A DNA stretch of 64,000 nucleotides from an uncultured Gemmatimonadales bacterium (GTDB lineage: Bacteria; Gemmatimonadota; Gemmatimonadetes; Gemmatimonadales; GWC2-71-9), in assembly GCA_963844035.1 (NCBI GenBank), contig CAWJMT010000005.1, positions 203,336 through 267,335 of the forward strand, written 5' to 3'. This document shows, piece after piece, positions 4,795-32,760 of this stretch. A program made the translations under genes and the position numbers. Position 1 is the stretch's first letter. The number at the start of each line of letters is the position of its first letter. The notes beneath the pieces were generated by a model. That model was not told where the DNA came from and ran no database searches. It saw only the letters and a list, made by a program, of their open reading frames with translations.

Positions 4795-5974
<1,180 letters not shown>

Positions 5975-5998
5975 GGCTACCAAGCGAAGGATTCGACG

Positions 5999-7732
<1,734 letters not shown>

Positions 7733-7763
7733 GGCTACCAAGCTAAGGGTGGTGCCGCGTCAG

Positions 7764-10025: not shown

Positions 10026-10082
10026 GTAAATCCACTTTCATCCCGCCGACGGATGTACCCCGGCGCCCAGCGCGGACAGCTT
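10026..10082 (+). promoter_or_regulatory. shared promoter motif copy 1 (upstream of ice-binding gene 1)
   Basis: GTAAATCCACTTTCATCC-N7-GGATG-N21-CAGCTT. Confidence 0.75.
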
Positions 10083-10121: not shown

Positions 10122-11093
10122 ATGTATTCTCTGCCACGACTGACGGCCCGACTCGCCGTCGCTGCCTCGTTTGCCGCGCTGCTGACCGCAGCGTGTAGCC
10201 CCGACTCCAAAGACGTCTCCTCACTTTCCGGCCCAACCCTGTCCGCGGCCCGCCAGGCCGGCGGTGGGGCAGCGGCGTCGGACTTCGTGGTGCTCGCAAA
10301 CGCTGGGGTGACCTGCACCGACGGGACCATTAACGGCAGCGTGGGCACCTTCCTCGCTCCGCCGACCGGTGCGTTCACCAATACCCGGTGCGTGATCACG
10401 GGGACGAGTCACCTCGGCGACGCAGCGGCCGTCGCGGCCTACAACGCCTATCGCACCGAGTACGCAGCGCTCGCGCCCGTACTGGGGGACTGCGACGCCG
10501 CCCATACCTTGCCGAGCACGATCGCGGCCTCCCTGACGCTGGCGCCCGGTGTCTACTGCACCGGTGCGGCATTGACGGCAACGGACGTCACGTTGACCCT
10601 TGACGCGGGTGGTAACCCCAACGCGACCTGGCTGTTCAAGATCGGGTCGAGCGGCACGGCCGGCACGGGCGCCCTCACGGGCACCAACTTTTCGGTGATC
10701 ATGGCCGGCGGCGGGCAGGCGTGCAACGTGACGTGGTGGGTCTCTCAGGCCGCGACGATCACGACGAGCATCGCCACTCCGACGACCTTCTCGGGCAACA
10801 TTCTGGCGGGAGCGGCTATCACCCTGACCCAGGAGATCTTCAACGGCAACGCGTGGGCAGGAGCTTCCGGGGTCGGCGACGTGACGATGACCGGCACGAC
10901 GATCAACGGCTGTGCGGACGGCGCCGCTGACAACGGCAAAGACTGCCATAGGAAGGGCCACCACCACAAGAACCATCACGACAAGGGCCACCACCACGAC
11001 AAGCACCACGACAAGCACCACGATTCCAAGGGCCACGACTCCAAGGGCCACGACTCCAAGGGCCACGACTCCAAGCACTCGGGCCGCTACTAG
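10122..11093 (+). CDS. DUF3494 ice-binding-like lipoprotein with His/Lys/Asp-rich C-terminal tail
   Basis: Lipobox LTAAC; LAPGVYC, LTLDAGGNPNATWLFKIG, NVTWWV, FSGNILA. Confidence 0.85.
   Translation: MYSLPRLTARLAVAASFAALLTAACSPDSKDVSSLSGPTLSAARQAGGGAAASDFVVLANAGVTCTDGTINGSVGTFLAPPTGAFTNTRCVITGTSHLGDAAAVAAYNAYRTEYAALAPVLGDCDAAHTLPSTIAASLTLAPGVYCTGAALTATDVTLTLDAGGNPNATWLFKIGSSGTAGTGALTGTNFSVIMAGGGQACNVTWWVSQAATITTSIATPTTFSGNILAGAAITLTQEIFNGNAWAGASGVGDVTMTGTTINGCADGAADNGKDCHRKGHHHKNHHDKGHHHDKHHDKHHDSKGHDSKGHDSKGHDSKHSGRY
10953..11078 (+). repeat. coding tandem repeats (12-nt CACGACAAGCAC and 15-nt TCCAAGGGCCACGAC) encoding a His-rich tail
   Basis: KGHHHKNHHDKGHHHDKHHDKHHD(SKGHD)3SKH. Confidence 0.85.
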
Positions 11094-11109
11094 CCCCCGC
11101 GGAGAACGA

Positions 11110-11138
11110 CGCGGAGGGGCGCAGTCCCGCCCCTCCGC
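11110..11138 (+). terminator. GC-rich hairpin after ice-binding gene 1
   Basis: GCGGAGGGGCG-CAGTCC-CGCCCCTCCGC; no U-tract. Confidence 0.45.
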
Positions 11139-11168
11139 GGCACTCCAGGCCTGACGTTGGGAGGACGC

Positions 11169-11264
11169 ATGAGTGATCCCAGGAAAACTTTCATGCTCTA
11201 CGCCCTGATCCTCGTCATTATGTCGATCGGCGCGGTGGTGTCCGCGTCCGCCTGGCGGTGGTGA
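11169..11264 (+). CDS. 31-aa single-pass membrane peptide (not in ORF track)
   Basis: GGAGG SD, MSDPRKTFMLYALILVIMSIGAVVSASAWRW*. Confidence 0.55.
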   Translation: MSDPRKTFMLYALILVIMSIGAVVSASAWRW

Positions 11265-11441
11265 TGACGGATGGTACACGAGCCCCGGCGCACCCCTCAG
11301 GTTGCCCGGTTGTTGGGAGGAGGTGGGCGGCCAAGACCGCCCTCTTTCTTTTCAACCGGCAGGGATGACACAGGGAGACACCTACCTCAAAGGAGCTAGT
11401 GCGTTCGGGCGACAACCGTCTCGCGGCGTCGCCCTTCGTTT

Positions 11442-11498
11442 CTAAATCCTCTTTCGTCCGCCTGAGGGATGGGCGCTGAAGCACGCGCCAGCGAGGTT
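11442..11498 (+). promoter_or_regulatory. shared promoter motif copy 2 (upstream of ice-binding gene 2 / ompA)
   Basis: CTAAATCCTCTTTCGTCC-N7-GGATG-N21-GAGGTT. Confidence 0.75.
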
Positions 11499-11584
11499 TG
11501 AGACACTTGGGCGAGGAAGTTTCCGACCGCCACACGGATCCCGGGATGTATTGGCAGGGACACGAAATACTTCGGAGGCAGCAA

Positions 11585-12580
11585 ATGTTCACTCTTTCCC
11601 GACACATGGCTCGACTCCTCGTCATCGTCCCGCTCGCCGTGGCGCTTGCCGCTGCGTGCGAGCACACCGAAGGCCCACCGGTTGCCGGTCAATTGCTGGC
11701 CATCACGGTCACGCCCAACCCGGTCACCCTGCCCCCCAGCGGCCCCCAGCAGTTCGCTGCCGCGGGCACCGACATCACGGGCGCGGTCGTTTCCATAACG
11801 CCGGTGACCTGGTCCGTCGTGGCGAGCGGGGGAACCATCAACAGCAGCTCGGGTTTGTTCACCGCGGGTGCGACGCTCGCGACGTTCCCCAGTACGGTGC
11901 GGGCGTGCAATAGCCTCGGTGACACGTGTGGCTTCGCGACCGTGATCGTAGCCAACACCGCCCCGGTCGGGCCAACCCTGGGAACGGCGGCGACCTACGG
12001 GATCCTGGCCGGCGCGTCGGTCACCTGTGCCGGCGCTCCGGGCACCATCAACGCCGATGTGGGCATCAGCCCGGGCAACACGCTCACGGGCTTCCCGCCG
12101 TGCACGATCACCGGCGTCCAGCACCTCGGGGACGCGACCGCGCTCACGGCGCAGAACGACCTCACCGCGAACTACAACGCGCTCGTCGCCCTGAATTGCA
12201 CCAGCACCATTGTCGCCGATCTGGGCGGCACGACGATCACGCCGGGTGTGTATTGCGGCTCGTCGTCGGTGGCAGTGACGGGCACCCTGACGCTCGACGG
12301 CCAGGGCAACGCCAACGCGCTGTTCGTGATCAAGGCCGGGTCCACGCTCACGACCGGCACGGGCGCGAATATCGCGCTCACCAATGGCACCCAGGCGAAG
12401 AACGTGTGGTGGCAGGTCAGCAGCTCCGCGACGCTCGGGACCGGCACGACGTTCCGAGGCAACATTATCGCGTTAACGACCATCACCCTCGCCGGCACCG
12501 CCAACATGACCGGCAGGGCCTTGGCGCGTAACGGGTCCGTGAGTTTGGCGGCCACCGGCAACACCATCACACTGCCGTAG
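11585..12580 (+). CDS. Ig-like plus DUF3494 ice-binding-like lipoprotein
   Basis: GGAGG SD; LAAAC lipobox; LGTAATYGILAG, DLGGTTITPGVY, LTLDGQGNANALFVIK, KNVWWQVSSSATLG, GRALARNGSVSL. Confidence 0.9.
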   Translation: MFTLSRHMARLLVIVPLAVALAAACEHTEGPPVAGQLLAITVTPNPVTLPPSGPQQFAAAGTDITGAVVSITPVTWSVVASGGTINSSSGLFTAGATLATFPSTVRACNSLGDTCGFATVIVANTAPVGPTLGTAATYGILAGASVTCAGAPGTINADVGISPGNTLTGFPPCTITGVQHLGDATALTAQNDLTANYNALVALNCTSTIVADLGGTTITPGVYCGSSSVAVTGTLTLDGQGNANALFVIKAGSTLTTGTGANIALTNGTQAKNVWWQVSSSATLGTGTTFRGNIIALTTITLAGTANMTGRALARNGSVSLAATGNTITLP

Positions 12581-12679
12581 GCGTCCGTTCGCACGCTGGC
12601 GCGGGAGCCGGAGACCAATCCGGTCGCCGTCTCCCGCACCCGCCGGAAGCCGTGACTTTACACAGATTGGGGAGAAGAC

Positions 12680-13725
12680 ATGCGTGATCAAATGCTGAAG
12701 AGTGTGCGAACGCTGGCGGCGTTCCTGCCGGTGCTGGTGCTGGCGCAGCCGGTGGCGGCCCAGCAGGCGGCCCATCGCGAAGGCAGCTGGGAATTCAGCC
12801 TGGGCGGCGGCGCGATGTTCGCTCGACAACGGACCTCGCGACCTATCTCGGGAGCGCAGGGTTCGCCGACAACGCCGACCCGAGTGGCACCGTGCCCGGC
12901 GGGGTGGTGCGCTTGGGCTACAACATCGACAAGCACCTCGGGTTCAGCGGCGGTGCCGGATTTGGCACCGGGTCCGGCGTGAAGTACCTGACGCCGTTCG
13001 GCGACTTCACCTACACGATCAACCTGAACGCGAAGACGAGCCCCTTCCTCACCGGCGGCACGCAGTTCACCCGCATCACCGGCAACGACCGCGTCACACA
13101 CCCCGTCTGGGGCGGGCGCGTCGGCCTCGGTGTCCGGCACATGCTCAGCGAGAACCTGGCGCTGCGGCTCGAGGCCCGGGCGGGGTTCGAGCACTACGCG
13201 GAGATTGCCGGGACCCAGATGAACCCTGTCGTGACGCTGGGCATCTCGTACTTCACCGCCGGCCGCCAGCCCCCGGTCGCCGTGGTGCCGCCGCCGTGTC
13301 CGGTGTGTGCGCACGCGCGGGTGGATACCGTGTGGCGGACGACGCCGGCGCCGGCCCCCATCACCATCGTGCTTCGCGATACGCTGGTGCTCGAGGGCGT
13401 CAACTTCGACTTCGACTCCTCGGCCCTGACGCCCGAGTCCCACTGGGTGCTCGACCGCGTGGCGCAGGAGATGCTCAAGCCCGAGTGGGTGAACACCCGC
13501 TGGGAGATCGCGGGTCACACGAGTAGCATCGGCACGCACGAGTACAACATGGCGCTGTCGCAGCGCCGGGCTGAGGCCGTGCGGGCGTACCTCGTGTCGC
13601 GCGGTGTCCCGAACACCCGGCTGACCCCGAAAGGGTACGGCGAGACGAGCCCCATGTACCCGAACGACAATGAGGGGCGCAACTGGCGGAACCGGCGCGT
13701 GGAGCTGCGGCGCATCAAACCGTAA
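12680..13725 (+). CDS. OmpA family outer-membrane protein (beta-barrel plus OmpA_C), frameshifted
   Basis: GVNFDFDSS, IAGHTSSIG..YNMALSQRRAEAV, GYGETSP, NRRVE. Confidence 0.9.
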
Positions 13726-13746
13726 CGCCCAACGCAGTCTGATCGA

Positions 13747-13786
13747 CGTCGAGCCTCGTTCCGGACCATCGGAACGAGGCTCGATG
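13747..13786 (+). terminator. 17-bp inverted repeat between ompA and kaiC
   Basis: CGTCGAGCCTCGTTCCG-GACCAT-CGGAACGAGGCTCGATG. Confidence 0.55.
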
Positions 13787-13856
13787 TATGTTCGGGGTGG
13801 GGGCGCTACCGTTCGAGGACCACCATTTGTTAGGGCCACTGTGCGCTGGTGAGTGC

Positions 13857-15429
13857 ATGACCGACAACCGTTCGTAGCCGCACGCCGACGCCGACGCAAC
13901 GAGCCGGAAACGGGAGCCGGTCTCCCAGGCGCCCGCTCGCCAAGGCCCCGACCGGCATCCCGGGGCTCGATGAGATCACCAACGGAGGCCTGCCCCGCGG
14001 GCGGCCCACGCTGGTGTGCGGCGGCGCCGGCTGCGGCAAGACGCTGCTCGCCATGGAATTCCTCGTGCGCGGCGCGCTCGACTACAACGAGCCGGGCGTC
14101 TTCATGTCGTTTGAGGAGACCGCCGAAGACCTGGTGGAAAACGCCCGGTCGCTCGGTTTCGACCTGCAGCGGCTGAGCGCCCGCCGGCGGCTGCTGCTCG
14201 ATCACGTGCGCCTCGAGCGCACCCAGCTGACGGAGGCCGGCGAATACGATCTCGAGGGGTTGTTCATCCGGCTGGGCCACGCGATCGATTCGATCCGCGC
14301 CAAGCGGGTCGTCCTGGACACCATCGAGCTGCTCTTCTCCGGGCTCTCCGACGCGTCTGTGCTGCGCGCCGAGCTGGCCCGGCTGTTTCGGTGGCTCAAG
14401 GCGAAGAAGGTCACGGCCATTGTGACGGGCGAGCGGGCGGGCGATCGCCTGACGCGCCACGGTCTCGAGGAGTTCGTTTCCGACTGCGTGATCGTGCTCG
14501 ATCACCGGGTGACCGAGCAGAGCGCCACCCGGCGGTTGCGTATCGTCAAGTATCGCGGCTCGGGGCACGGCGGCAACGAGATGCCGTTCCTGATTGACGA
14601 CCATGGCGTGTCGGTACTGCCGATCACTTCGCTGGGACTCGCGCACCAGGCGTCCACCGCACACGTGTCCACCGGGGTGGCCGGGTTGGACGGGATGTTT
14701 GGAAAGAAGGGATACTTTCGCGGCAACAGCGTGCTCGCGTCGGGAACGGCGGGCACCGGCAAGTCCAGCTTGGCGGCCCACTTTGTGGCGGCCGCGTGCC
14801 GGCGCGGAGAGCGCTGTCTGTACTTCGCCTTCGAGGAATCGCCGAGCCAGATCATGCGCAACATGCGGTCGATCGGCATCGCCCTCGAGCCCTGGATACG
14901 CCGCGGCCTGCTGCGCGTGCACGCCGAGCGGCCGACGGCCCTCGGCCTGGAAGCGCACCTGGTGGCGATGCACCGGCTCATCGACCAATGGCAACCCCGG
15001 GTAGTCATCGTGGACCCGGTCACCAACCTGATCGCGGTCGGCAGCGAGCTCGAAGTGAAGGCGATGCTCGCGCGGCTCATCGATTTCATGAAGCTGCGGC
15101 AGATCACCGCGCTCTTTACCTCCCTGACCGAGGGCGGCGGCGCGGCCGAACGCACCGACCTGGGCGTGTCGTCGTTGATGGACATCTGGATGCTGCTCGG
15201 GAACCCGGAGGCGAACGGCGAGCGCAACCGGACGATCCAGATCGTCAAGGCCCGCGGCATGGCGCACTCGAACCAGGTCCGCGAGTTCGTGATGAGCGAC
15301 CGCGGCATCACGCTGGTGGACATCAGCCGCCGCGCCGACGGGAGCGTAGCCATCGGGGCGGCCCGCGGTGCGCAACAACAAGCGCGTGCCGGCGATCCCA
15401 AGCCCAGGCGCGGGCGCCGGGTCGAATGA
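13857..15429 (+). CDS. kaiC: circadian clock protein KaiC-family double-domain ATPase (indel just after ATG)
   Basis: [14 protein letters not shown], Walker A GGAGCGKT and [38 protein letters not shown] at the phosphosite position. Confidence 0.93.
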
Positions 15430-15728
15430 AGAACGGAGCGCGCCGGACTTGGCGGCTGCGGCTGTACGTGGCGGGGCAGACGCCAAAATCGATCGCCGCC
15501 CTGGCCAATCTGACGCGCCTGTGCGAGGGCCACCTCGCCGGCCTATACCGCATCGAAGTGATCGACCTGGTGAAGCAGCCACACCTGGCGCGCCGGGACG
15601 ACATCGTCGTGCTCCCGACCCTGGTGCGACAGCTGCCGCCGCCGATCCGCAAGATCATCGGCGATCTGTCGAACGAGGAGCGGGTGCTAGTCGCGTTGGA
15701 GATGCTGCCGCATGATGACACGAAGTAG
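15426..15728 (+). CDS. kaiB: circadian clock protein KaiB
   Basis: [49 protein letters not shown] overlap with kaiC. Confidence 0.93.
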
Positions 15729-15740
15729 GCAACGCTCGCC

Positions 15741-16910
15741 GTGACGAAGAGACGCAAGGCGCCGCGCCGCCGCTCTCCGGCTCGACTGGCCAAGCTGCAG
15801 ACCCGGCTCCGAGCGGCCGAGGACACCCTGCGTGCCCTCCGCGTCGGAGACGTCGATGCGCTGGTGACCACCCGCGGCGGGGACGAGCATGTGATCACGC
15901 TCGATGGTGCCGACCTCCCCTACCGCATTCTGCTGGACCAGATGTTCGCCGGCGCGGTCACGCTGACGCCGGACGGTGTCGTCATCTACTGCAATACCCG
16001 GTTTGCCGACATCGTGCGGACGCCAATTGCACGCGTCCTCGGCTCGGCGATGAGCCGCTTTGTGCCGCCCTCTGAGCGGCCAACCCTCGAGGCGCTGCTC
16101 GCACGGGGGCTGGAGGGCCGCGCGGGGAGCGAGCTGGAGCTCCGGGTTGGCGATGGCGCCCGGGTGGCGGTCTCGGTCACTTTCGCTCCCCTGCGGTTGG
16201 CGGGGAGCGCCGGGGTCAGCGGCGTGATCGGCGTGGTCGTGGATGCGACCGAGCGGAAACAGCAGGAGGATCTCCGTTCCCGGCTGATCGAGCAGGTGAT
16301 GACCGCGCAGGACGAGGAGCGGCGGCGGATCGCCCGTGAGCTCCACGATGAGACCGGGCAGTCGCTCACCGCGATGTTGGTGGGGCTGCGGACGATCGAG
16401 GAGTGCAGGACCGCAGCGGAGGCAGCCGGGCTGGCGCAGCACCTGCGCGCGGTCGTCGCCCAAACGCTCGTGGACGTCGGGCGGCTCGCGCGGGGACTGC
16501 ACCCGAGCGTCCTCGACGATCTGGGGCTCGCCGCGGCCGTGACCAACCAGGCGCACGATCTCGAGGAAATGCACGGAATCGCCGTGGACGTGCGCATCGA
16601 GGGACTCGATGCCGAAGCGTTGCCGCCCCTGCTGCAGACGACGGTGTACCGCCTCGTCCAGGAGGCGCTGACCAATGTGGCACGACATGCCAAGGCACGG
16701 CGGGCGACAGTGCGGCTGGTGCGAGACGAGGCGACGGTCGAGCTGCGCGTGCAGGATGACGGCATCGGCTTCGCTGCGCGAAATCAACGGGGCCTCGGCC
16801 TGCAAGGCATGCGGGAGCGCGCCGCCCTGCTCGGCGGCTCGGTCGCGATCGAGTCGCCCCCGGGAGGCGGGACGACCGTCGCGGTCCGCTTTCCCGTGCG
16901 CGGCGTCTAG
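15741..16910 (+). CDS. PAS-domain sensor histidine kinase (HisKA_3/NarX type)
   Basis: PAS domain, ERRRIARELHDETGQ, QEALTNVARHA, DDGIGF, GLGLQGMRER. Confidence 0.92.
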   Translation: MTKRRKAPRRRSPARLAKLQTRLRAAEDTLRALRVGDVDALVTTRGGDEHVITLDGADLPYRILLDQMFAGAVTLTPDGVVIYCNTRFADIVRTPIARVLGSAMSRFVPPSERPTLEALLARGLEGRAGSELELRVGDGARVAVSVTFAPLRLAGSAGVSGVIGVVVDATERKQQEDLRSRLIEQVMTAQDEERRRIARELHDETGQSLTAMLVGLRTIEECRTAAEAAGLAQHLRAVVAQTLVDVGRLARGLHPSVLDDLGLAAAVTNQAHDLEEMHGIAVDVRIEGLDAEALPPLLQTTVYRLVQEALTNVARHAKARRATVRLVRDEATVELRVQDDGIGFAARNQRGLGLQGMRERAALLGGSVAIESPPGGGTTVAVRFPVRGV

Positions 16911-16915
16911 CACGC

Positions 16916-17578
16916 ATGCCGAAAATCCGCGTGCTCGTCGCCGACGACCACACCGTCCTCCGGGCCGGCCTGACGCTGCTCATCAACGCTCAGTCCGATA
17001 TGGAAGTGGTGGGCGAAGCCGCCGACGGCGCCGAAACGGTGAGCCGGGCGCGGGACCTCGGGTGCGACGTCGTCCTCCTGGACCTCACCATGCCCGGCTC
17101 CTCCAGCACCGCGGTCATCGGATGGCTGAGGCGACTGGACCCAATGCCGCGCATTCTCGTGCTCACCGGGCACGACGATCCGGCCTACCTGCGCTCCGCG
17201 CTCCGGGCCGGCGCGTCCGGTTACATCGTCAAGAGCGTGGCGGACGTCGACCTGTTGGCCGCGATCCGCGTTGTTTACGACGGCGGCAGTTTCGTACGGT
17301 TGACGCGTTTCGGCGAACCGACGGGGGGGGATGTGGTCCGGCGTGGCTCCGGCGACTCGCCGGCTGTTGCGCCGTCCCGGCCGCTCAGCCGGCGGGAGGT
17401 CGAGGTGCTGCGACTCCTGGCGCAAGGGCATACGAATCAAGAGGTTGCGGATCGGTTGACCGTGAGTACCAAGACCGTCGAAACGCACCGCCGGCGCCTG
17501 ACCGACAAGCTGGGGCTCAAGAGCCGCGCCGAGCTGTTCAGCTTTGCCGTCGAGGCTGGCCTGTTCGAGAAGTCGTAG
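16916..17578 (+). CDS. NarL/LuxR family response regulator (RR1)
   Basis: ADDH, VLLDLTMP, LTG, IVK, LSRREVEVL...KTVETH HTH. Confidence 0.93.
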   Translation: MPKIRVLVADDHTVLRAGLTLLINAQSDMEVVGEAADGAETVSRARDLGCDVVLLDLTMPGSSSTAVIGWLRRLDPMPRILVLTGHDDPAYLRSALRAGASGYIVKSVADVDLLAAIRVVYDGGSFVRLTRFGEPTGGDVVRRGSGDSPAVAPSRPLSRREVEVLRLLAQGHTNQEVADRLTVSTKTVETHRRRLTDKLGLKSRAELFSFAVEAGLFEKS

Positions 17579-17708
17579 CGGCTCGACGGTGTCAGGGATT
17601 TTCCCGACGCCTGTCTCTATCGCGTTACAGTTCCCCTATACCCACCGCCCCCCAGTTTGCTGTAGTATTCATGCTCTGTGAGCGCGTGTCACGCGGGCCG
17701 CGCCCGAA

Positions 17709-18425
17709 TTGCCCCGCGAAGATCACTCAAGGATCCTGCAACTGCCGAAACGCCCTCAGGTCGAACGCATCCAGGTGGTGGTCATCGACGACAACCGCCT
17801 CGTACGCGAGGGGCTCAAGGCCCTGCTCGATGCGATGCCAGACTTGAAAGTTGTGGCGACCGCGGAAGATGTGACCGACGGACTGCGCCAGGTGCGGGAG
17901 TTGACACCCCAGGTCGTGCTGCTGGATGCGACGATGGACAACGGCGACACCGCTCGCTGCGTGGAAACGCTCCGCAAGACCACCCCGACAGCCAAGGTGA
18001 TCGTGATGGACCTGCTGGCCGGGCCTGAAGACGTGATCGAGTTCGTCAAGGCGGGGGCCAACGGATTCGTCATGAAGGACGCGACGCTCGACGATCTCGT
18101 GCGCACGATTCGATCGGTCGCCGAGGGAGCGGACGTGGTTCCCCCCGCCTTGACCGGGACGCTGCTGTCGCACATCGCGCAACAGGCGGTGACCCGTCAT
18201 CTGCCGGGCGTCGAGCAGGCCGTGCGCATGACGAAGCGTGAGCGGCAGATCATGGATTTGATTGCGGAGGGTCTGAGCAACAAGGAGATCGCGCAGCGGC
18301 TCAACATTGCGACCTACACGGTCAAGAGCCACGTGCACAACATTCTGGAAAAGCTGGCGTTGCACAGCCGGCTGCAGATCGCCGCGTATACCCACAAGGC
18401 CGGAGCTGTTCCCGCCGCGACGTAG
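17709..18425 (+). CDS. NarL/LuxR family response regulator (RR2)
   Basis: IDDN, VLLDA, MTKRERQIMDLIAEGLSNKEIAQRLNIATYTVKSHVHNIL. Confidence 0.92.
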   Translation: MPREDHSRILQLPKRPQVERIQVVVIDDNRLVREGLKALLDAMPDLKVVATAEDVTDGLRQVRELTPQVVLLDATMDNGDTARCVETLRKTTPTAKVIVMDLLAGPEDVIEFVKAGANGFVMKDATLDDLVRTIRSVAEGADVVPPALTGTLLSHIAQQAVTRHLPGVEQAVRMTKRERQIMDLIAEGLSNKEIAQRLNIATYTVKSHVHNILEKLALHSRLQIAAYTHKAGAVPAAT

Positions 18426-18462
18426 TCCCCTTCGATTGGCCGACTGTACTGCGAACGCGCGG

Positions 18463-18881
18463 GTCAGGCCCCGCGTGGGCCGCCGTTTGCGGCAACGACT
18501 TTTTTCGCCGTGCGTGGGCCACCGTTTGCGGATGCGACTTTTCGCCGTGCGACTGCCTGCCCGGGCAACGGGTAACGCAAACGAAAACTTCGCAGGTCCC
18601 GTGAGGGCGAAGTCCATGTTCAGCTGCTTCAGCTGCGTCTCGATCGCCCGATCGACGTCGGGCACCTGCGCGGGGTTGTCGGTGACGACAAGGATGTGGG
18701 TGATGTTGGTTTCGAGCACGATCCGGCCGGTCCACAGGCGTCCTCCACGCAGCGCCGCCGACTGGGCCCGGCGGAGCAGGGCCTTGATCTTCTTGAACCG
18801 CATCTCGGGCTGAGGCGGATTGAGCTCATAGGCGTAGACCCAGCGGGTCTTGGCCGCTCGCCGCGGTCGCTTGAGAACCAT
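18463..18881 (-). CDS. hypothetical basic protein (indel in a poly-A run within its C-terminal repeat)
   Basis: AGGAGG SD before ATG; C-terminal duplicated (K)V(A/V)(S/A)ANGGPR repeat ends at TGA in a shifted frame. Confidence 0.55.
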
Positions 18882-19121
18882 CGAACTCCTCCTTCTCGTA
18901 TTCATCAGCTATTCATCAGCCGCGCACTTCCGGCGTAATGCTGTCAGTACTCGCAGTACGCGCGCAGCATCGCAGCCTCTCCTACCAGATCGCAACCTAT
19001 CGCGCCCGTGTTGTGTGGCGCCATCCATCATGAGGACGACACTCACCTCGGTCGAATAGACCTCCATCCTACGACGTAGTCCGTTCGATGCGCAGTGACC
19101 CCGTCCGCTCGGCAAAAATCT

Positions 19122-19178
19122 CTAACTCATTTCTCATCCCATCTGGGGATGTTCCCCGCGGGCCGGCATGCGCAGGTT
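19122..19178 (+). promoter_or_regulatory. shared promoter motif copy 3
   Basis: CTAACTCATTTCTCATCC-N7-GGATG-N21-CAGGTT. Confidence 0.75.
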
Positions 19179-19286
19179 GCGTGCAGGGATTTGGCAGTCC
19201 ACAGCGGGACGAATTGCGGGAGCACACATGAACCCCATCACACAGAGCAGCAGCACGGGAACGATGCTGTACGCGGGAGACCGGGT

Positions 19287-19508
19287 ATGAAGCCGTTAGC
19301 GCTGGCGGGAATCGTCCTGGCGGTACTTGGCGGCTTCATCGTGTTCAGAGGCATGAGCTACGGCTCTGAGCACAACGTGATGAAGGTCGGCGACCTGCAG
19401 GTCTCCACCAAAGAGCAGCACACAATTCCCGCCTGGATGGGCGGCGTAGCACTCGTTGCCGGCGTGCTGTTGGTCGCCGCCGGCGTTGGCAGACGGCGTA
19501 GCGCATAG
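19287..19508 (+). CDS. small two-TM membrane protein (DUF3185-like)
   Basis: MKPLALAGIVLAVLGG...VGDLQV...IPAWMGGVALVAGVLL. Confidence 0.7.
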   Translation: MKPLALAGIVLAVLGGFIVFRGMSYGSEHNVMKVGDLQVSTKEQHTIPAWMGGVALVAGVLLVAAGVGRRRSA

Positions 19509-19520
19509 GGAGATAAGAAC

Positions 19521-19670
19521 ATGATTTGGACACTCGCACTCGTCTTGGTCATTCTCTGGGCCCTTGGCCTGGTGACGTCGTACACGTTCGGGGGAATGAT
19601 TCACCTGCTCCTGGTCGTGGCGCTCGTGGTGATCGTCATTCGTGCCCTCCAAGGTCGAAGGGTTGTGTAG
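19521..19670 (+). CDS. lmo0937-family small membrane protein (49 aa, not in ORF track)
   Basis: GGGAG SD; MIWTLALVLVILWALGLVTSYTFGGMIHLLLVVALVVIVIRALQGRRVV*. Confidence 0.85.
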   Translation: MIWTLALVLVILWALGLVTSYTFGGMIHLLLVVALVVIVIRALQGRRVV

Positions 19671-19689
19671 GTCTCCGGACGGAGGACGT

Positions 19690-20319
19690 ATGTCGAAGAC
19701 ATTGCTCACAGCGGTCCTGGTGCTTGGCGTTGCGGCGTGTTCGCCCGCCTCCGGCAAGAATGCGGAGGGCGGCGGCGCGTCCGCGTCACGCACCCTGGTC
19801 GAGGGGACGCGGATCGAAGCGACGACTGGGGATGCGCTGTCCTCGCGCCACAACGAGGCGGGCGAGACGCTCGCGGCAACCGTGAGCGCTGACGTCGAGG
19901 ATGGGAGCGGCCACGTGGTCATTCCCGCGGGTTCCGCGGTGGCACTGCGGATCGTGCAGCTCGAACCGGCCACCAACAAGAGTCAGGACGATGGGAAGAT
20001 CGCGCTCGAGGCGACTGCTGTGACGGTCCGCGGGCAGGTCTATAGCATGAACGCGCGGCTCGACCCCGTCACGCACCAGCTGCACGGGCGGGGTGTCACG
20101 ACCGGCGAAGCCGAGAAGGTTGGTGCTGGCGCGGCGATCGGAGCGGTGGCGGGTCGGGTGTTTGGCGGCGACACCAAGGGCGCGGTGATCGGCGGCGCGA
20201 TCGGCGCCGGTGCGGGAACGGCCGTGGCCGTGCATTGGGCGAGCCGGGACGTGGTCGTCCCGGTTGGGACGCGCGTCACGTTTTCGCTGCCGCAGTCGCT
20301 CACCATATCGACTCGTTAG
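19690..20319 (+). CDS. glycine-zipper lipoprotein
   Basis: GGAGG SD, VAAC lipobox, GAGAAIGAVAG...GAVIGGAIGAGAG. Confidence 0.8.
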   Translation: MSKTLLTAVLVLGVAACSPASGKNAEGGGASASRTLVEGTRIEATTGDALSSRHNEAGETLAATVSADVEDGSGHVVIPAGSAVALRIVQLEPATNKSQDDGKIALEATAVTVRGQVYSMNARLDPVTHQLHGRGVTTGEAEKVGAGAAIGAVAGRVFGGDTKGAVIGGAIGAGAGTAVAVHWASRDVVVPVGTRVTFSLPQSLTISTR

Positions 20320-20352
20320 AGCGAATCTCTCATCCAATCAAGGGAAGACGTC

Positions 20353-20655
20353 ATGATCCGTGTTGCAACGATCTTGCTGGCCGCGCTGTGCACCGCCGGC
20401 GCCACGCAGCTCCTGGGTCAACAGCCCATCCTCGCACCGGTGGTGGAAGGGCGCATTCCGCAGGCGAGCGCGCCCGGCGCACCGTTGCCCGGCCCGCGTC
20501 TCGCGCCGGAGTTGCGCAGCTACGAGCCGACCTTTGCCGACAACCGCGCCACGGGGCAGCCGTTGCTCATGAGCAGCGGTTCCAATAACACCTTCGTGAT
20601 CTCGACGCTGTCGCTCGTGCTGATCGCCGTCATCGTGGTGCTGCTGGTGGCGTAG
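20353..20655 (+). CDS. small secreted/membrane-anchored hypothetical protein
   Basis: Signal peptide plus C-terminal TM helix. Confidence 0.65.
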   Translation: MIRVATILLAALCTAGATQLLGQQPILAPVVEGRIPQASAPGAPLPGPRLAPELRSYEPTFADNRATGQPLLMSSGSNNTFVISTLSLVLIAVIVVLLVA

Positions 20656-20708
20656 TCGGAGCGGGGCGTGCCGGTTGAACGCCCCGATCGCACACTAACC
20701 CATTGGTA

Positions 20709-20765
20709 CTAAGTCGAATTTCATCCTGCCGGGCGATGTGCGTTTGCCGCGTACGCGGGCAGATT
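20709..20765 (+). promoter_or_regulatory. shared promoter motif copy 4 (upstream of ice-binding gene 3)
   Basis: CTAAGTCGAATTTCATCC-N7-CGATG-N21-CAGATT. Confidence 0.75.
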
Positions 20766-20853
20766 TGCATCAGGCGGTGAACTCGGAGACAGAGTTCCCG
20801 GGTTAGCTGCATGACTCTCGCAGTCTTCATCAAGCAGTTGAAGGAGGAACCCC

Positions 20854-21675
20854 ATGAACAAACTTCAGAACGCTTCGCGGGTGTTGTTGAGCGCGCTACT
20901 CCTGGCCGGGTTTGCGGCCGCATGTGGCGACGACGACACAACCGCCCCAACCAACCCATCCCCAACCACCCCGGGCGCAGGCCCAGGCACGGGCGGCGGC
21001 GGCCATGGTCCAGCGCCCGTCGTTCTGGGAGCGGCCGGCACGTATGTGATTCTGGCAAAGTCCGGAGTCTCCAACGTTCCGACGTCCGCGATTACCGGGA
21101 ATATTGGCTTGAGTCCGGCCGCGGCGAGCTTCATCACCGGGCTGCCACTCACCATTGACGCGGGCGGGACCTTTGCGACCACGCCGCAGGTGACGGGGAA
21201 CGTCTACGCAGCCGACTATACCTCTCCAACTCCGTCGAACCTCACGACGGCGGTCAGCGATATGCAAACCGCATACACCGACGCCGCCGGACGACCGACG
21301 CCTGATCACACGGAGCTGGCGAGTGGCAACATTGGCGGGCTGACGCTCCCGCCCGGCCTCTACAAATGGTCGAACACGGTTCTCATCCCGACCAACGTCA
21401 CGCTTACCGGTGGCGCCAACGATACCTGGATCTTCCAGATCGCGGGCGGTCTGACCCAGTCCTCCGCAGCGCAGGTTATCCTGAGCGGTGGCGCACAGGC
21501 CCAGAACGTGGTCTGGCAGGTCTTCGGTGCGGTGGATATCGGAACGACCGGGCACATGGAAGGTCGGATCCTGTCGCAAACGTCGATCGTGTTGCGCACT
21601 GGCGCGGTGGCCAACGGCAAGCTGTTGGCACAGACCGCGGTCACGCTGGCCGGTAACACGGTTGTAAACAAGTAG
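20854..21675 (+). CDS. DUF3494 ice-binding-like lipoprotein
   Basis: AGGAGG SD; FAAAC lipobox; LGAAGTYVILAKSGVS, AVSDMQTAYTDAAGR, IGGLTLPPGLYKW, WIFQIAG, NVVWQV, GKLLAQTAVTL. Confidence 0.93.
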   Translation: MNKLQNASRVLLSALLLAGFAAACGDDDTTAPTNPSPTTPGAGPGTGGGGHGPAPVVLGAAGTYVILAKSGVSNVPTSAITGNIGLSPAAASFITGLPLTIDAGGTFATTPQVTGNVYAADYTSPTPSNLTTAVSDMQTAYTDAAGRPTPDHTELASGNIGGLTLPPGLYKWSNTVLIPTNVTLTGGANDTWIFQIAGGLTQSSAAQVILSGGAQAQNVVWQVFGAVDIGTTGHMEGRILSQTSIVLRTGAVANGKLLAQTAVTLAGNTVVNK

Positions 21676-21732
21676 GCACGATCGGTAGAACCTGCTCCCG
21701 CAGGGGATGCAGCTTGATGGGGAGCAGCTAAG

Positions 21733-21759
21733 GAGGCCGTCGCGAGACGGCCTCTTTTT
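21733..21759 (+). terminator. intrinsic terminator
   Basis: GAGGCCGTC-GCGA-GACGGCCTC-TTTTT. Confidence 0.85.
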
Positions 21760-21789
21760 GTTGCTGGAAACCTCCCCACACCAAAGTAG

Positions 21790-21846
21790 CTAAGTCGCAA
21801 TTCACTCCGCTGGCCGATGTTCCCCCGGTGCACCGGCAGGCACATT
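21790..21846 (+). promoter_or_regulatory. shared promoter motif copy 5
   Basis: CTAAGTCGCAATTCACTC-N7-CGATG-N21-CACATT, ATG 5 nt later. Confidence 0.72.
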
Positions 21847-21851
21847 GGTGC

Positions 21852-22364
21852 ATGACGCGCAATGGCGATTGGCTGCTCTGGCCCGTGAGGACGCTGCTTG
21901 CGGGAATGCTGGGTCTGGGCCTGGTGGCGTGCACCAGTGCCGTCGCACGGGTGCCTGAGGGTCCTGACGCCGTCCGCACGACGGGCGGCATTCGCGCTGT
22001 GGACCGGACGCTGGTGGCGGGCACGCTGGTCGAGGCGACCATCACCCGCACGCTGTCCTGGCGCCGCAACACGCCGGGCGAGCCGCTGACGGCGATCGTG
22101 AGCGCGGACGTCCGCAATGCGCGCCGCTGGGTGGTGATTCCGGCCGGAAGCGCGCTGGCGCTGAGGGTCCCGCGCCGGCCGTCGACGACGATGCAGCTGG
22201 ATGTGGTGTCCGTGACGGTCCGGGGGCGGGCGAATCCAGTGCGCGCCACGATGGACGTCGCGCCGGCGCCGGCCGGTGACGTGGCGGTGGAATCGGGGGC
22301 GCGAGTCCTGTTCGTCCTGCCGGAGGGGTTCACGGCGGCGGTGCGGCACGAGACCATCCCATGA
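21852..22364 (+). CDS. hypothetical lipoprotein, paralog of 19690-20319 without the glycine zipper
   Basis: LVAC lipobox; shares RTLV.GT..EAT, VSADV, VVIPAGS.ALR, VTVRG. Confidence 0.7.
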   Translation: MTRNGDWLLWPVRTLLAGMLGLGLVACTSAVARVPEGPDAVRTTGGIRAVDRTLVAGTLVEATITRTLSWRRNTPGEPLTAIVSADVRNARRWVVIPAGSALALRVPRRPSTTMQLDVVSVTVRGRANPVRATMDVAPAPAGDVAVESGARVLFVLPEGFTAAVRHETIP

Positions 22365-22606
22365 ATTTCAGACGCCTGATGTCGCTGGTGGGTGTGGTGC
22401 TCACCTCGCTGCTGATGATCGCGCAGACGGTGCAAAGCTTCGTGCTCATCGCGTCCGATGCGAAAGCGGCGAAGCAAGCGGAGAAGGTGCGCAAGCCGAA
22501 TCGCCGCCTTCCTCCGAAGACGCTAGTTCATCTCACTGCTCGTTACGACGAATGGAGGGCGTTATGTCAGGCAGGATGCTCACGGGGGTGCTCGCGCTGG
22601 GTCTGA
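22361..22606 (+). CDS. small hypothetical membrane protein (end uncertain)
   Basis: ATGA overlap with upstream gene; N-terminal hydrophobic helix. Confidence 0.4.
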   Translation: MNFRRLMSLVGVVLTSLLMIAQTVQSFVLIASDAKAAKQAEKVRKPNRRLPPKTLVHLTARYDEWRALCQAGCSRGCSRWV

Positions 22607-23074
22607 TGGCGTGTTCACGTGCCCCGGTCAAGGAGAACGTTGTCGTCGACGCAGCCTGTGGTCGAGACGCAGAGTCTTGCCGTGTCCGCCGCGGTGCTCA
22701 CGACGCTGCAGGCGCTGATCCACTTCGCCGATAACCAGGCGGGCTTGAGCGATTCGGCGCGGACGATCCTGGACGACAAGGTCGCCGTGTTCCGGGCGAA
22801 CCCGAAACTGCGGATCGTCATCGTGGGGTACGCGAGCCAGCCCGGCACCGAGGCCTACAACCTCAAGCTCGGCACCCGGCGCGCCGAATCGGCCAGGAGC
22901 CACCTGGTGGCACAGGGTATCGCCGAGGACCGGATCGATATCGAGACCCAGGGCGAGAGCCAGCGGTTGGTTGAGGGCTCCGGGGAGGCGGCCGACGCGG
23001 AGAACCGCCGCGACCAGTTCCAGGTGATGGCCCTCACGCACAGCGACGTGTTTCTGGCGTCGCCCGAGAAATAG
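22564..23074 (+). CDS. Pal-like OmpA_C lipoprotein (frameshifted)
   Basis: GGAGG SD, LMAC lipobox; IHFADNQAGL, GTEAYNLKLGTRRA, GES, NRRD. Confidence 0.8.
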
Positions 23075-23215: not shown

Positions 23216-24458
23216 ATGAAGGGTTCGGCTCAGGACAACACCGTCGTCCGGTTTGAGATCGCCCCGCGCTCGATCGCGTGGATCCTGGCGACGATCGCGG
23301 GCGTGTGGTTGTTCTTCCAGCTCCGGGTGATCGTGCTGCTGGTGGTGGTCGCGCTCGTCCTCGCGGGCACCTTCAATCCGGTGGTCGAGTGGCTGGAGCG
23401 CCGCGGGCTCAAGCGGATCTACGGGCTCGTGCTGGTCTTTGTCGCGCTGCTGGTCGTTCACCTGCCTGCTCATCTTTTTCATGGTCCCGCCCCTCACCGA
23501 GCAGCTCACCCAGATTGTGAGCGACGCTCCGCAGCATCGCGAACGGTTGATCGCGTTGCTCCAGCAGCGCGATGCCACCGCTCCCCTCGCCCGAGCGATG
23601 CAGCACGCAGATCTCGCGAAGACGATCGCCCGCCTCGAGACGTACCTGGTGGAGTACGTGCCCCGCGCCGCCGTCGGGCTGGGATACGCGGTGACCACCC
23701 TGGTGCTGGCGTTCTATATCCTGGCGGACGGCAAGCGGACCCAGGGCACGCTGTACGCCATCGTGCCGCGCGGCTACCACATGCGGCTGGCGCGCATCAT
23801 CCAGAACATGGAGGTGATCGTCGGCGGCTACATGCGAGGCCAGCTCATCACGTCCGCGGCGGTCGGCGTGGTGACCTTTGTGCTCCTGGTGGCGTGCAAG
23901 GTCCCGAATGCATTGTCCCTCGCGCTGTTCGCAGCCCTGGTGGACGTGATCCCGTTCGTCGGCGCGGTGCTGGCGAGCGGTCCGGCCGTCCTGTCGGCGC
24001 TGTCCGTCAGCGTGCCCGTGGGCATGGTGGTGCTGGTGGTCCTGTTCGTCTACCAGGAATTCGAGAATCGCATCCTGGTTCCGAAGATCTATGGACGCGC
24101 GCTGCGGCTCTCACCAACGGTGGTCATTCTCGCGCTGCTGGCCGGCGGCATGCTGCTCGGCATCATCGGGGCGCTGCTCGCCCTGCCCATCGCGGCGGGG
24201 CTGCAGATGATGGTGGCGGAGCTGCGGGTGGACTTGCCTGGCGACGACAGTGACGACCGGGTGGCGCACGCCCGCGATGCGCAGACCGAGGCGACCTACG
24301 AACGCATGAGTGCCGGCGCCACGGCCCCGGAAGCCGGACGGATCGCGCGGAACCTCGCGCACGACATCCGGGACGCGGACGTCGTGGATGCCGCGAAGGA
24401 GATGGACGCGGCGAAGGCAAGGGAAAAGGAAATGGAAGCGGAGGGTGTTGGGCCATGA
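23216..24458 (+). CDS. AI-2E family transporter (frameshifted)
   Basis: Multi-TM; GGYMRGQL, DVIPFVG, QEFENRILVPKIYG, GALLALPIAA. Confidence 0.88.
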
Positions 24459-26582
24459 CCACCACCGCACGCGCCCCGAGGGCCAAGACCGGCCGGCGGG
24501 TGGAGGTCATCACCGACCTGAAGACCGGCGCCCTCCAGGATGCCATTCTCAACAGCGCCAACTTCTCGAGTATCGCCACCGACGCGAAGGGCGTGATCCA
24601 GATCTTCAACGTCGGCGCCGAGCGGATGCTGGGCTATGCGGCGGCCGAGGTGATCAACAAAATCACGCCGGCCGATATTTCCGATCCGCAGGAAGTGATC
24701 GCCCGCGCCAAGGCGCTCAGCGTCGAGCTGGGCACGCCGATTACGCCGGGCTTCGAGGCGTTGGTGTTCAAGGCCTCGCGCGGCATCGAGGACATCTACG
24801 AGCTGACCTATATCCGCAAGGACGGCAGCCGGTTCCCGGCAGTGGTGTCGGTCACGGCGCTGCGGGACGCCCAGGACGCCATCATCGGCTATCTGCTGAT
24901 CGGCACCGACAACACCGCGCGCAAACAGGCGGAAGAGGCGTTGCTCAAAGCGGGCGCCCTGCAGAGCGCGATCTTCCACAGCGCCAACTTCTCCAGTATC
25001 GCGACGGACGCGAAGGGCGTGATCCAGATCTTCAACGTCGGCGCCGAGCGGATGCTGGGCTATGCGGCGGCCGAGGTGATGAACCAGATCACGCCGGCCG
25101 ACATTTCCGATCCGCAGGAAGTGATCGCCCGCGCCAAGGCGCTCAGCGTCGAGCTGGGCACCCCGATTACGCCGGGGTTCGAGGCCCTGGTCCACAAGGC
25201 GTCGCGCGGCATCGAGGACATCTATGAGCTGACCTACGTCCGCAAGGACGGGAGCCGGTTCCCGGCGGTCGTGTCGGTCACGGCGCTGCGCGATGCGCAG
25301 GACGCCATCATCGGCTATCTGTTGATCGGCACCGACAACAGCGCGCGCAAGGAGGTCGAAGAGGAGCGCGAGCGCCTGGATCAGGTGCTGCGGGAGAAGA
25401 ACATCGAGCTGGAGAGCTCCAAGTCCGTGGCGGAAAAGGCCAACCGCGCGAAATCGGAGTTTCTGTCCAGCATGAGCCATGAGCTGCGCTCACCGCTCAA
25501 TGCGATCCTCGGGTTCGCCCAGCTGATGGAATCCGACGCCACGCCGGCCACGCCGTCCCAGAAAACGAGCATCGACGAGATTCTTCGCGCGGGCTGGTAT
25601 CTCCTGGAGCTGATCAACGAGATTCTCGACCTGGCGCAGATCGAGTCCGGAAAGCTGTCATTGTCGCGGGAGCCGACGTCACTGGCCGACGTGATGCTCG
25701 AATGCCAGGCCATGATCGAGCCGCAGGCGCAAAAGCACGGCATCCGCATGACCTTCCCGCCGTTCGACGTCCCGTTGTTCGTTCAGGCCGATCGCACGCG
25801 GTTGAAGCAGGTGCTCATCAACCTCCTGTCCAACGCGGTCAAATACAACCAGCCGGGGGGAACGGTGGTGGTGGACTGCGTCGCCGCTACCCCGGACCGG
25901 GTTCGGATCAACGTCCGGGATACGGGCGCAGGGTTGCCTCCGGAGAAGCTGGCGCAGCTGTTCCAGCCGTTCAACCGCCTGGGCCAGGAGCGGGGCGCCG
26001 AGCAGGGGACCGGCATCGGCCTGGTGATGAGCAAGCGGCTGGTCGAGCTGATGGGCGGCGTGCTCGGTGTGGAGAGCAGCGTGGGAGTCGGCAGCGTGTT
26101 CTGGTGCGAGCTGGAGCGCGGCGGCGGCGCCGGAGATCGACGAGACGACACAGGCCCCCGCGGCCGCCGCCGGCGCGCAGGCTCAGCCCGGCGCGCCCGT
26201 GCACACGCTGCTGTACGTCGAGGACAACCCGGCGAACCTGAAGCTGGTCGAGCAGCTGATCGCCCGCCGCCCCACGCTGCGCCTGCTGACCGCGGTGGAC
26301 GGCAACCAGGGGATCCAGCTGGCGCGCGCCAATCTGCCGGAGGTGATCCTGATGGACATCAATCTGCCCGGCATCAGCGGTCTCGAAGCCCTGAAGATCC
26401 TGCGCGACGACCCGGCGACCGCGCACATTCCCATCGTCGCCCTCAGCGCCAATGCGATGCCACGCGACATCGAGAAGGGTCTCGAGGCGGGATTCTTCTC
26501 GTATCTCACCAAGCCGATCAAGATCAAAGAGTTCATGGAGGCGCTCGACGCGGCGCTGGAATCCGGGCACGCGCATGCTTGA
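24455..26582 (+). CDS. hybrid sensor kinase PAS-PAS-HisKA-HATPase-REC (frameshift near 26120)
   Basis: Two PAS repeats, MSHELRSPLN, NLLSNAVKY, DTGAG, GTGIGL; REC VEDN..LMDINLP..TKP in the next frame. Confidence 0.9.
24527..25348 (+). repeat. intragenic tandem duplication, 426-nt period (two near-identical PAS/PAC modules)
   Basis: AGCGCCAACTTCTC at 24554 and 24980; long identical stretches. Confidence 0.9.
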
Positions 26583-31260: not shown

Positions 31261-31967
31261 TCAGGCTTGACGCGCCACAGGTCCGGTGCACGGGTCGGCG
31301 CTCCGGGCAAACGTGTGCGCGGCGATCTGAAGCCGGCTGTGCAACGCCAGCTTTTCCAGAATGTTGTGCACGTGGCTCTTGACGGTGTACGTCGCGATAT
31401 TGAGCCGCTGGGCCATCTCCTTGTTGCTCAGACCCTCTGCAATCAAGTCCATGATCTGCCGCTCACGCCTCGTCATGTGCACGCGCCTGCTCGATGCCCG
31501 GCATGTGGTGCGTCACCGCCTGCTGCGCAATGTGCGACAGCAGCGTCCCGGTCAACGCGGGGGGGGCCACGTCCGCTCCCTGGCCGACCGATCGAACGGT
31601 GCGCAAGAGATCGTCCACCGTCGCGTCCTTCAGGATGAACCCGGTCGCTCCCGCCTTGATGAACGCGATGACGTCGTCCTGCACGGCATGCACGTCCATT
31701 AGGACCACCCGAGTCTCAGGCGCCAAGTCCTTGATTCTCTTGAGAGCGTCCCCCTTACCCAGGGCTGCGTTGACCACCGTGGCATGCGGCTGAGTCTCCC
31801 GAACCGAAGCCAGCCCCAATGTGACGCAGGCGGCGGTCGCGGCGACCTTGAAGTCCGGGTGCCCGTCCAGCAGGGCGGCGAGTCGCTCGCGCGCCAGACG
31901 ATTATCCTCGATCACCACCACGCGAACGGGTCCGGCCCCGAATGGTGAGGTCGTCTGACGAGTTCAT
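31261..31967 (-). CDS. NarL family regulator RR3, paralog of RR2 (frameshifted)
   Basis: IEDNRL, ALTGTLLSHIAQQAV, MTRRERQIMDLIAEGLSNKEMAQRLNIATYTVKSHVHNILEKL. Confidence 0.88.
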
Positions 31968-32657: not shown

Positions 32658-32760
32658 AGTGAAATCCTCCTTCATTTGTTCGGGTGTCAACTTCCCAGAA
32701 CAATGCCTCCGTGGGCCGCAGGGCGGTATCGTCCCGAAGGATGGAAAAGGACGTAACTCG

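Follow-up and report, generated by a model that had tools for sequence, protein, structure and literature searches.

Among described systems, the closest to the locus studied here are the kaiC-kaiB-PAS/kinase operons of Rhodobacter sphaeroides and Rhodopseudomonas palustris (KaiC2/KaiB2; PMC10076222, PMC4794148; here and below, cited work is represented by the portions of the text that were accessible). A 'first kaiC context', in which kaiC (with ST or SS phosphosites) and kaiB are followed either by a histidine kinase or by a protein of the GGDEF/EAL type, was defined by De Luca et al. 2011 (PMC3164672), and in environmental Pseudomonas KaiC-like proteins bind the neighbouring kinase via its N-terminal PAS region and play a role in stress resistance (bioRxiv 2022.01.26.477890). 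Cyanobacteria combine Kai proteins, a kinase and a transcription factor in the SasA-RpaA pathway and carry a NarL-type gene, KaiA3, beside kaiB (PMC5520375; bioRxiv 2021.07.20.453058). For non-cyanobacterial KaiB/KaiC, a survey describes the output factors as unknown and the cyanobacterial output genes as mostly missing (PMC5520375). Here, we analyse a 64,000-nucleotide stretch of DNA from an uncultured Gemmatimonadales bacterium (the window; contig CAWJMT010000005.1, positions 203,336 to 267,335), in which kaiC, kaiB, a PAS histidine kinase and two NarL-type response regulators (RR1 and RR2) form an island with three genes for lipoproteins of the DUF3494 (PF11999) ice-binding family.

The island shares with the R. 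sphaeroides and R. palustris operons the gene order, the lack of KaiA and the TSS phosphosite motif, and its KaiC and KaiB are nearest to R. sphaeroides structures. However, its KaiC has no C-terminal coiled coil, which forms the dodecamer in the Rhodobacter-type hourglass, and it adds a NarX-like HisKA_3 kinase, a co-encoded DNA-binding regulator and traceable target promoters. It also resembles the first kaiC context, whereas the N-terminal domain reported in the accessible part of that study, which names no regulators, boxes or targets, belongs to the second, kaiB-less context. The Pseudomonas modules, as far as the accessible text describes them, differ in having no KaiB and single-domain receivers only. 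A SasA-like kinase was rejected, as no KaiB match was found in the kinase, which lacks the KaiB-like N-terminal domain of SasA. We likewise rejected RR1 or RR2 as KaiA3, which is a different NarL-like protein (bioRxiv 2021.07.20.453058), since both keep the GerE/LuxR helix-turn-helix at their ends. Compared with DUF3494 ice-binding proteins such as PDB 4NU3, the three island genes encode the full domain, and they differ in being predicted lipid-anchored paralogues under one shared promoter motif. Judged from sequence, the island is a real, conserved variant of the known KaiC2-KaiB-kinase operon, and its predicted wiring to target promoters is the new part. An earlier note on this DNA was not aware of a description of such a coupling. 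The kaiC-kaiB-kinase order and the SS sites are in print (PMC3164672, PMC4794148), while our literature search, which covers few subscription papers, found nothing joining DUF3494 or an ice-binding protein with KaiC, nothing on Gemmatimonadetes kaiC and circadian behavior, and, for a KaiC2 downstream regulon, either nothing or only cyanobacterial clock papers.

We propose, with a probability of about 0.58, that signals run from KaiC/KaiB through the kinase and RR1 to RR2, and from RR2 to the DUF3494, OmpA and small stress genes, by way of two DNA elements termed box 1 and box 2. KaiC2 together with KaiB would sense the ATP/ADP (adenosine tri-/diphosphate) state and touch the N-terminal segment of the kinase, which would phosphorylate RR1. 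RR1 would then bind box 1 and turn RR2 on. RR2, with its atypical receiver, would work chiefly through being expressed, binding box 2 at the -35 border of weak promoters of the housekeeping type and thereby activating the target genes. An open reading frame (ORF) listing and family scans recovered every gene named in the earlier note in its place, and the features of the proposed route are as follows.

10027..10082, + strand: box 2 before DUF3494 gene 1 (activator half-sites and weak -10), 35.9 bits.
10122..11093, + strand: DUF3494 lipoprotein 1 with a His/Asp/Lys-rich tail; PF11999 E 2e-24, lipobox Cys25.
11443..11498, + strand: box 2 before DUF3494 gene 2 and ompA, 26.2 bits.
11585..12580, + strand: DUF3494 lipoprotein 2; PF11999 E 1e-46, lipobox Cys25.
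12680..13725, + strand: OmpA-family beta-barrel and OmpA domain protein (domain 12892-13725), frameshift near 12820.
13857..15429, + strand: kaiC, KaiC2 type with SS phosphosites and without coiled-coil tail; NF006799 645 bits, cut-off 408.
15426..15728, + strand: kaiB, one copy; PF07689 E 8e-25, nearest solved chain 8FWJ_M.
15741..16910, + strand: soluble PAS-HisKA_3-HATPase histidine kinase (family scan).
15789..15929, + strand: Kai-linked N-terminal segment of the kinase, ~45 residues, modelled helix and beta-hairpin, no Pfam family.
16916..17578, + strand: RR1, NarL-type REC-LuxR response regulator with canonical receiver (family scans).
17590..17609, + strand: box 1, imperfect palindrome before RR2 and putative RR1 site; 23.5 bits, the genome's top match.
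~17709..18425, + strand: RR2, NarL-type REC-LuxR regulator with pseudo-receiver, start codon uncertain.
19123..19178, + strand: box 2 before the small-protein operon, 33.1 bits.
19287..20655, + strand: small-protein operon (73-residue membrane protein; lmo0937-family protein, 19521-19670; glycine-zipper lipoprotein, 19690-20319, Pfam matches under cut-off; 100-residue protein).
20710..20765, + strand: box 2 before DUF3494 gene 3, 44.9 bits.
20854..21675, + strand: DUF3494 lipoprotein 3, closely similar to ice-binding proteins of solved structure; PF11999 E 5.5e-74, 263 bits to PDB 4NU3.
21791..21846, + strand: box 2, followed by a glycine-zipper-like lipoprotein and another OmpA protein, 30.8 bits.
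21852..23074, + strand: glycine-zipper-related lipoprotein, short ORF and OmpA/Pal-like domain (OmpA domain 22619-23074).
32700..32755, - strand: box 2, followed by a short basic ORF and a membrane protein of 95 residues, 31.9 bits.

The link between the two regulators is carried by box 1, a palindrome 11 nucleotides behind RR1 (at 17590) that is distinct from box 2. We built the box 1 matrix from Gemmatimonadales alone. In a leave-one-out scan at a threshold of at least 17.9 bits, box 1 was present at 9 of 10 loci in which RR1 precedes RR2, compared with 2 of 37 other RR2-type genes, both of which belong to genomes with RR1. Outside the Gemmatimonadota, a site of at least 15 bits lies behind RR1 at 16/20 loci versus 0/47 loci without RR1; the count leaves out 8 loci that broke off too soon and 4 Gemmatimonadota loci with RR1. 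All 16 belong to Acidobacteriota, and the recognition helix of RR1 is conserved among them. In Acidobacteriota the next gene is of the Crp/Fnr type (16/17 loci), and because the acidobacterial box 1 precedes this gene, box 1 appears to go with RR1 and whichever transcription factor forms the second tier. Thus, box 1 is likely the RR1 site. Its second match in the genome, within a repeat before a ribosomal RNA gene, was judged to be chance. A 20.2-bit box 1-like site (G000:C4:160230, - strand) stands upstream of a gene that we take to be type IV pilin-like from its N-terminal motif, and which may be a second RR1 target.

Box 2 was defined from the window and five relatives as a 56-nucleotide pattern with a TAAGTC-like element, CATC-N9-GATG and a weak -10 hexamer 25 nucleotides past the G. 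With a matrix derived from 9 sites in three other genomes, a scan of the 3.47 Mb assembly gave six matches of 26-45 bits, all within the island; the next match scored 14.7, and none exceeded 15 in the reversed genome. The shared motif of the earlier note is real and precedes all three DUF3494 genes. Sites found without use of the -10 columns carry A and T at -11/-7 in 30 of 33 cases (0.9 expected), and in 24 of 27 outside the window. The palindrome is centred near -42, which we take to be the position of a class II activator. A scan for consensus sigma-70 promoters returned no strong one on the + strand, as expected of activator-dependent promoters, though no proof of them.

RR2 itself belongs to a family in which the phosphoacceptor Asp is retained (42/43) and the Thr/Ser position is occupied by Asp (35), Gly (6) or Asn (1; one unread). 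An atypical regulator is one that misses one of the five conserved receiver residues, and control by expression level has been discussed for such proteins (PMC12632262). By this definition, replacement of the Thr/Ser switch residue across the family makes RR2 a predicted pseudo-receiver. Among 200 genomes drawn evenly across the order (a further set of 60 relatives was kept separate), the strict box 2 pattern occurs in 19, of which 16 are among the 50 genomes with RR2 and 5 among the 32 with kaiB; the reversed control hit 4 genomes. In one further box 2 genome, RR2 is cut by the contig end. On these counts, box 2 tracks RR2, not kaiB. The interpretation suggested earlier is supported in part: the Kai-gated cascade is mostly borne out and box 1 ties RR1 to the RR2 promoter, but the output motif goes with RR2 (16/19) rather than with kaiB (5/19). 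One Ignavibacteriota locus combines RR2 with a 16.8-bit box 2-like site. At a separate locus within one genus, RR2-type genes (L047, L054, L057, L076) have a perfect-looking CATC-N9-GATG palindrome upstream, which suggests autoregulation.

What box 2 would control is broader than ice binding. At 55 sites, from loci chosen around RR2 or kaiB, the commonest first genes are DUF3494 (13/55), the small ORF without a family, lipoproteins with glycine zippers, OmpA and CsbD, and Pfam identifies CsbD, transglycosylase-associated, ferritin-like, YtxH and M48 proteins as neighbours in relatives. Such proteins are tied to general stress regulons. Since the co-regulated genes are mostly general envelope and stress genes, the freeze-thaw or adhesion programme put forward earlier is retained as just one of several candidate traits. 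All three DUF3494 proteins have the full PF11999 domain above cut-off and a lipobox Cys at residue 24-25; the best score against the NCBIfam ice-binding equivalog NF045625 is 244, and its cut-off of 400 was not reached. The tail of DUF3494 protein 1 (10940-11090) is a His/Asp/Lys-rich repeat, possibly metal-binding.

At the upstream end of the route, the kinase and RR1 are of the NarX/NarL type, with a HisKA_3 kinase adjoining a REC-LuxR regulator whose receiver residues are intact, and RR1 is likely the partner of the kinase. Kinase residues ~17-63 matched no Pfam family. A search with a 53-residue query free of Kai sequence (three-sequence alignment) confirmed at least 121 matches among 600 rows, and the best 80 of these, a choice biased to close matches, provided 79 loci from Acidobacteriota, Cyanobacteriota, Actinomycetota, Chloroflexota, Myxococcota, Pseudomonadota, Verrucomicrobiota, archaea and others. 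At 78 of the 79, kaiB lies at most 700 nucleotides upstream of the segment, and kaiC is within the locus at 72; the lone locus without kaiB before the segment retains a kaiC 5' remnant. In the unselected 200 genomes, the segment directly follows kaiB in 20 of 22 matches (the remaining two are partial) and is present in 20 of the 32 kaiB genomes. Output domains found on 77 segment proteins, cut at 620 residues and after exclusion of three short fragments, were HisKA_3 (31), HisKA (23), HWE (6), GGDEF (3), SpoIIE (2) and HisKA_2 (2). A profile of the segment matched 5,592 clusters at 50% identity and is almost always N-terminal among the 150 matches listed. One annotated plasmid has the identical gene order.

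No sequence relative of the segment was found among solved structures (best E 0.23), and Atlas searches returned unnamed clusters. AlphaFold modelled segment and PAS together with a confident PAS domain and the segment as a helix and hairpin at a predicted local distance difference test score of 40-56; a fold search with this model returned PAS domains alone. In some proteins (P0121, P0123), the segment with PAS is repeated two or three times.

The kaiC and kaiB genes overlap by 4 nucleotides (kaiC end 15429, kaiB start 15426), in agreement with the earlier note, whose description of KaiC holds as well. Both Walker A motifs are intact, as are both catalytic EE pairs, and the SS pair aligns with S413/S414 of R. 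sphaeroides. SS was found in all 43 readable KaiCs (the pattern could read 43 of 65 related KaiCs), and SS phosphosites mark KaiC2 (PMC5520375). Against solved structures, KaiC scores 578-581 bits with R. sphaeroides 8DB3/8DBA and ~329 bits with cyanobacterial ones. The lack of kaiA, noted for the window, extends further: PF07688 was not found anywhere in the 84%-complete genome, in a search whose control was positive in Synechococcus alone. A genome-wide scan placed the only kaiC, the only kaiB and all three PF11999 genes of the assembly inside the island.

The KaiC tail extends 60 residues past the KxRG motif, compared with 115-147 in long-tailed relatives, and is thus without the C-terminal coiled coil. 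With this short tail, KaiC resembles the engineered tail-less R. sphaeroides protein, in which phosphorylation is normal, dephosphorylation in ADP is scarce and the protein falls apart when KaiB binds (PMC10076222). The KaiA-less hourglass timer of the earlier note has become doubtful because KaiC misses this coiled coil, the part used for dephosphorylation in the Rhodobacter hourglass; for the same reason, KaiC is more likely a slow energy-state or dormancy switch than a daily hourglass. Among the 64 of 79 loci with readable tails, a short tail occurs with one kaiB and RR1 in 22, a long tail with at least two kaiB and without RR1 in 35, and other combinations in 7. A quick tree of the 64 KaiCs, with weak deep support, nests short forms among long ones at several places. 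The RR1-linked short-tail KaiCs appear as two or three lineages, and a single origin is possible too.

In most long-tailed KaiC2 operons (L085-L162) there are two kaiB genes, which differ in type; where RR1 is present, the second kaiB is missing. At one of the 79 loci, from Acidimicrobiia (L157:9554-12079), the second kaiB is in frame with the kinase, either a natural fusion or a sequence error. At a Gemmatimonadales locus (L120:9790-10000), kaiC ends after its first codons and kaiB is gone while kinase and RR1 are intact, which may reflect a deletion or a misassembly.

Several points weigh against the proposed route. The box-regulator assignments rest on co-occurrence among non-independent kin, and the 16 acidobacterial box 1 loci form one tight lineage. 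The seed pattern of box 2 was drawn after upstream regions had been viewed, including the window's own, so its matches in the window are partly circular. With the strict pattern, box 2 was not found in 34/50 RR2 genomes, among them 4 of the 9 that have the kaiC-kaiB-kinase-NarL cassette; a matrix found it in three of those. Only 13 of 34 DUF3494 calls at the fetched loci lie within 450 nucleotides of box 2, and 22 of 34 lie within a co-oriented 6 kb run. One genome of the separate 60-relative set (G026, 94% complete) has the cassette and the boxes without any PF11999. Furthermore, the adjacency of segment and kaiB may reflect operon inheritance, the segment could be a dimerisation element, and the kaiC start is off-frame in this assembly.

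The alternative that survives best, which we still hold to be unlikely, is that the Kai block and the RR2 regulon merely travel together on the island, with other signals driving RR2 and with DUF3494 outside Kai control. The distribution of the genes bears on it from both sides. The cassette occurs in 9 of the 200 genomes (broken by contig ends in two), all 9 of which contain DUF3494, in 5 of them within ~10 kb on the same contig. In total, 34 of the 200 genomes have PF11999: 9/9 with the cassette, 16/42 with RR2 and no cassette and 9/149 with neither; as kin are not independent, these figures are counts and not tests. The 16 RR2 genomes without the cassette speak for co-travel, as do the 5/19 box 2 genomes with kaiB (Fisher p 0.20), the presence of DUF3494 within the fetched DNA of only 3/79 Kai loci across phyla, and the patchiness of the cassette within genera, which fits a block gained or lost whole. 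Against it, box 1 precedes RR2 solely where RR1 is present and, in another phylum, is still found behind RR1 although the transcription factor gene that follows is a different one, and DUF3494 occurs in 9/9 cassette genomes versus 5/23 with other kaiB types. Read from coordinates, 14 genomes have DUF3494 within ~12 kb of RR2, and 5 have it that close to kaiB. Of the conserved Kai-DUF3494 linkage expected earlier, the association in all cassette genomes was borne out by this neighbourhood survey, but DUF3494 follows RR2 also where the cassette is missing, so that its steady companion is RR2 rather than Kai. One relative of the 60-genome set (G015) repeats the window's gene order with four DUF3494 genes. 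A DUF3494 gene directly follows kaiC-kaiB-kaiB-kinase-regulator at one locus in Vicinamibacteria and lies 8 kb from the Kai genes at one in Acidobacteriota. The best reading of these patterns is that Kai would be one input module to an RR2 envelope-stress regulon that exists elsewhere without Kai.

A different wiring of the same parts seems unlikely as well. The kinase could feed Kai, as has been proposed for the R. sphaeroides kinase as an input of KaiBC (PMC5520375); RR1 and RR2 could bind box 2, which is asymmetric, as a heterodimer, a state possible for pseudo-receiver regulators (PMC12632262); or the second, hybrid kinase at 24455 could phosphorylate RR2, which keeps its Asp. However, box 2 and RR2 occur together in genomes in which RR1 was not found, and the N-terminal segment is carried by enzymes of the typical output kind. 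Least likely of all is a KaiA-less hourglass that times a freeze-thaw or adhesion programme by the day-night cycle: the closest matches to KaiC and KaiB are the R. sphaeroides hourglass proteins, DUF3494 protein 3 closely resembles ice-binding proteins of solved structure, and the best sequencing run with a portion of the stretch comes from a bog metagenome (share 0.43, matched as relatives at ~88-99% identity), but the coiled coil required for fast dephosphorylation is missing, general envelope and stress genes make up most of the regulon, and DUF3494 proteins are found around the globe, also in the tropics and in hot springs (PMC7783341).

In its fullest form, the Kai-to-RR2 route would have tail-less KaiC2 and one KaiB act as an energy-state sensor that docks on a dedicated 45-residue segment common to thousands of Kai-linked signalling proteins, with a cascade of two tiers (RR1, followed by RR2 in Gemmatimonadales and by a Crp/Fnr factor in Acidobacteriota) leading to functional ice-binding lipoproteins and stress proteins at the cell surface. 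If true, it would trace the transcriptional output of a Kai system outside cyanobacteria along its complete path. We offer this version tentatively and consider it somewhat unlikely as a whole.

The reading frames of the island are affected by the state of the assembly. The kaiC ATG at 13857 is out of frame owing to one surplus base near 13864 that two relatives do not have, and four other island genes are frameshifted in comparison with intact orthologues. Thus, the kaiC start and the neighbouring frameshifts are likely indel errors of the assembly. In the sequencing runs, the matches came from relatives alone, and none of the same strain spans the kaiC start. RNA contigs, which need not be transcripts, overlap parts of DUF3494 gene 2 and kaiC. 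On the - strand at 4677-9959, genes with Ig-like repeats and sorbosone-dehydrogenase-like genes carry many frameshifts, consistent with assembly indel errors. The conserved island extends to ~33 kb and includes the following further features.

11169..11264, + strand: 31-codon remnant of a fourth DUF3494 gene, resembling the start of the gene that is intact at this position in G015 (L037:14096).
18429..18905, - strand: small conserved protein without family; relatives have it behind RR2 and box 2, whereas here it is inverted.
23216..27714, + strand: AI-2E transporter, hybrid PAS kinase and receiver-adenylate cyclase, the first two frameshifted.
31261..31921, - strand: second RR2-type gene, frameshifted.

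The small ORF at 18429-18905 had no match in Pfam, NCBIfam or Atlas, and in relatives box 2 has an ORF of this type as its first gene at 7 sites. The trio of AI-2E transporter, hybrid kinase and cyclase recurs in the islands of three relatives (G044, G087, G092). Within it (24455-27714), the hybrid kinase contains a near-exact duplicated PAS unit and is followed by the receiver-adenylate cyclase; kinase and cyclase, kept in these islands, form a possible cyclic AMP branch.

Taken together, a Kai system outside cyanobacteria can probably be followed in this island as far as its candidate target genes, with every step named: the putative docking segment, the kinase, both regulators, the two DNA boxes and a limited set of target promoters. 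Each proposed link is open to purified-protein or reporter study in a laboratory host. RR2 becomes a candidate regulator for the DUF3494 genes of soil and peat bacteria, and a naturally tail-less KaiC2 bears on the question of which parts a timer needs.

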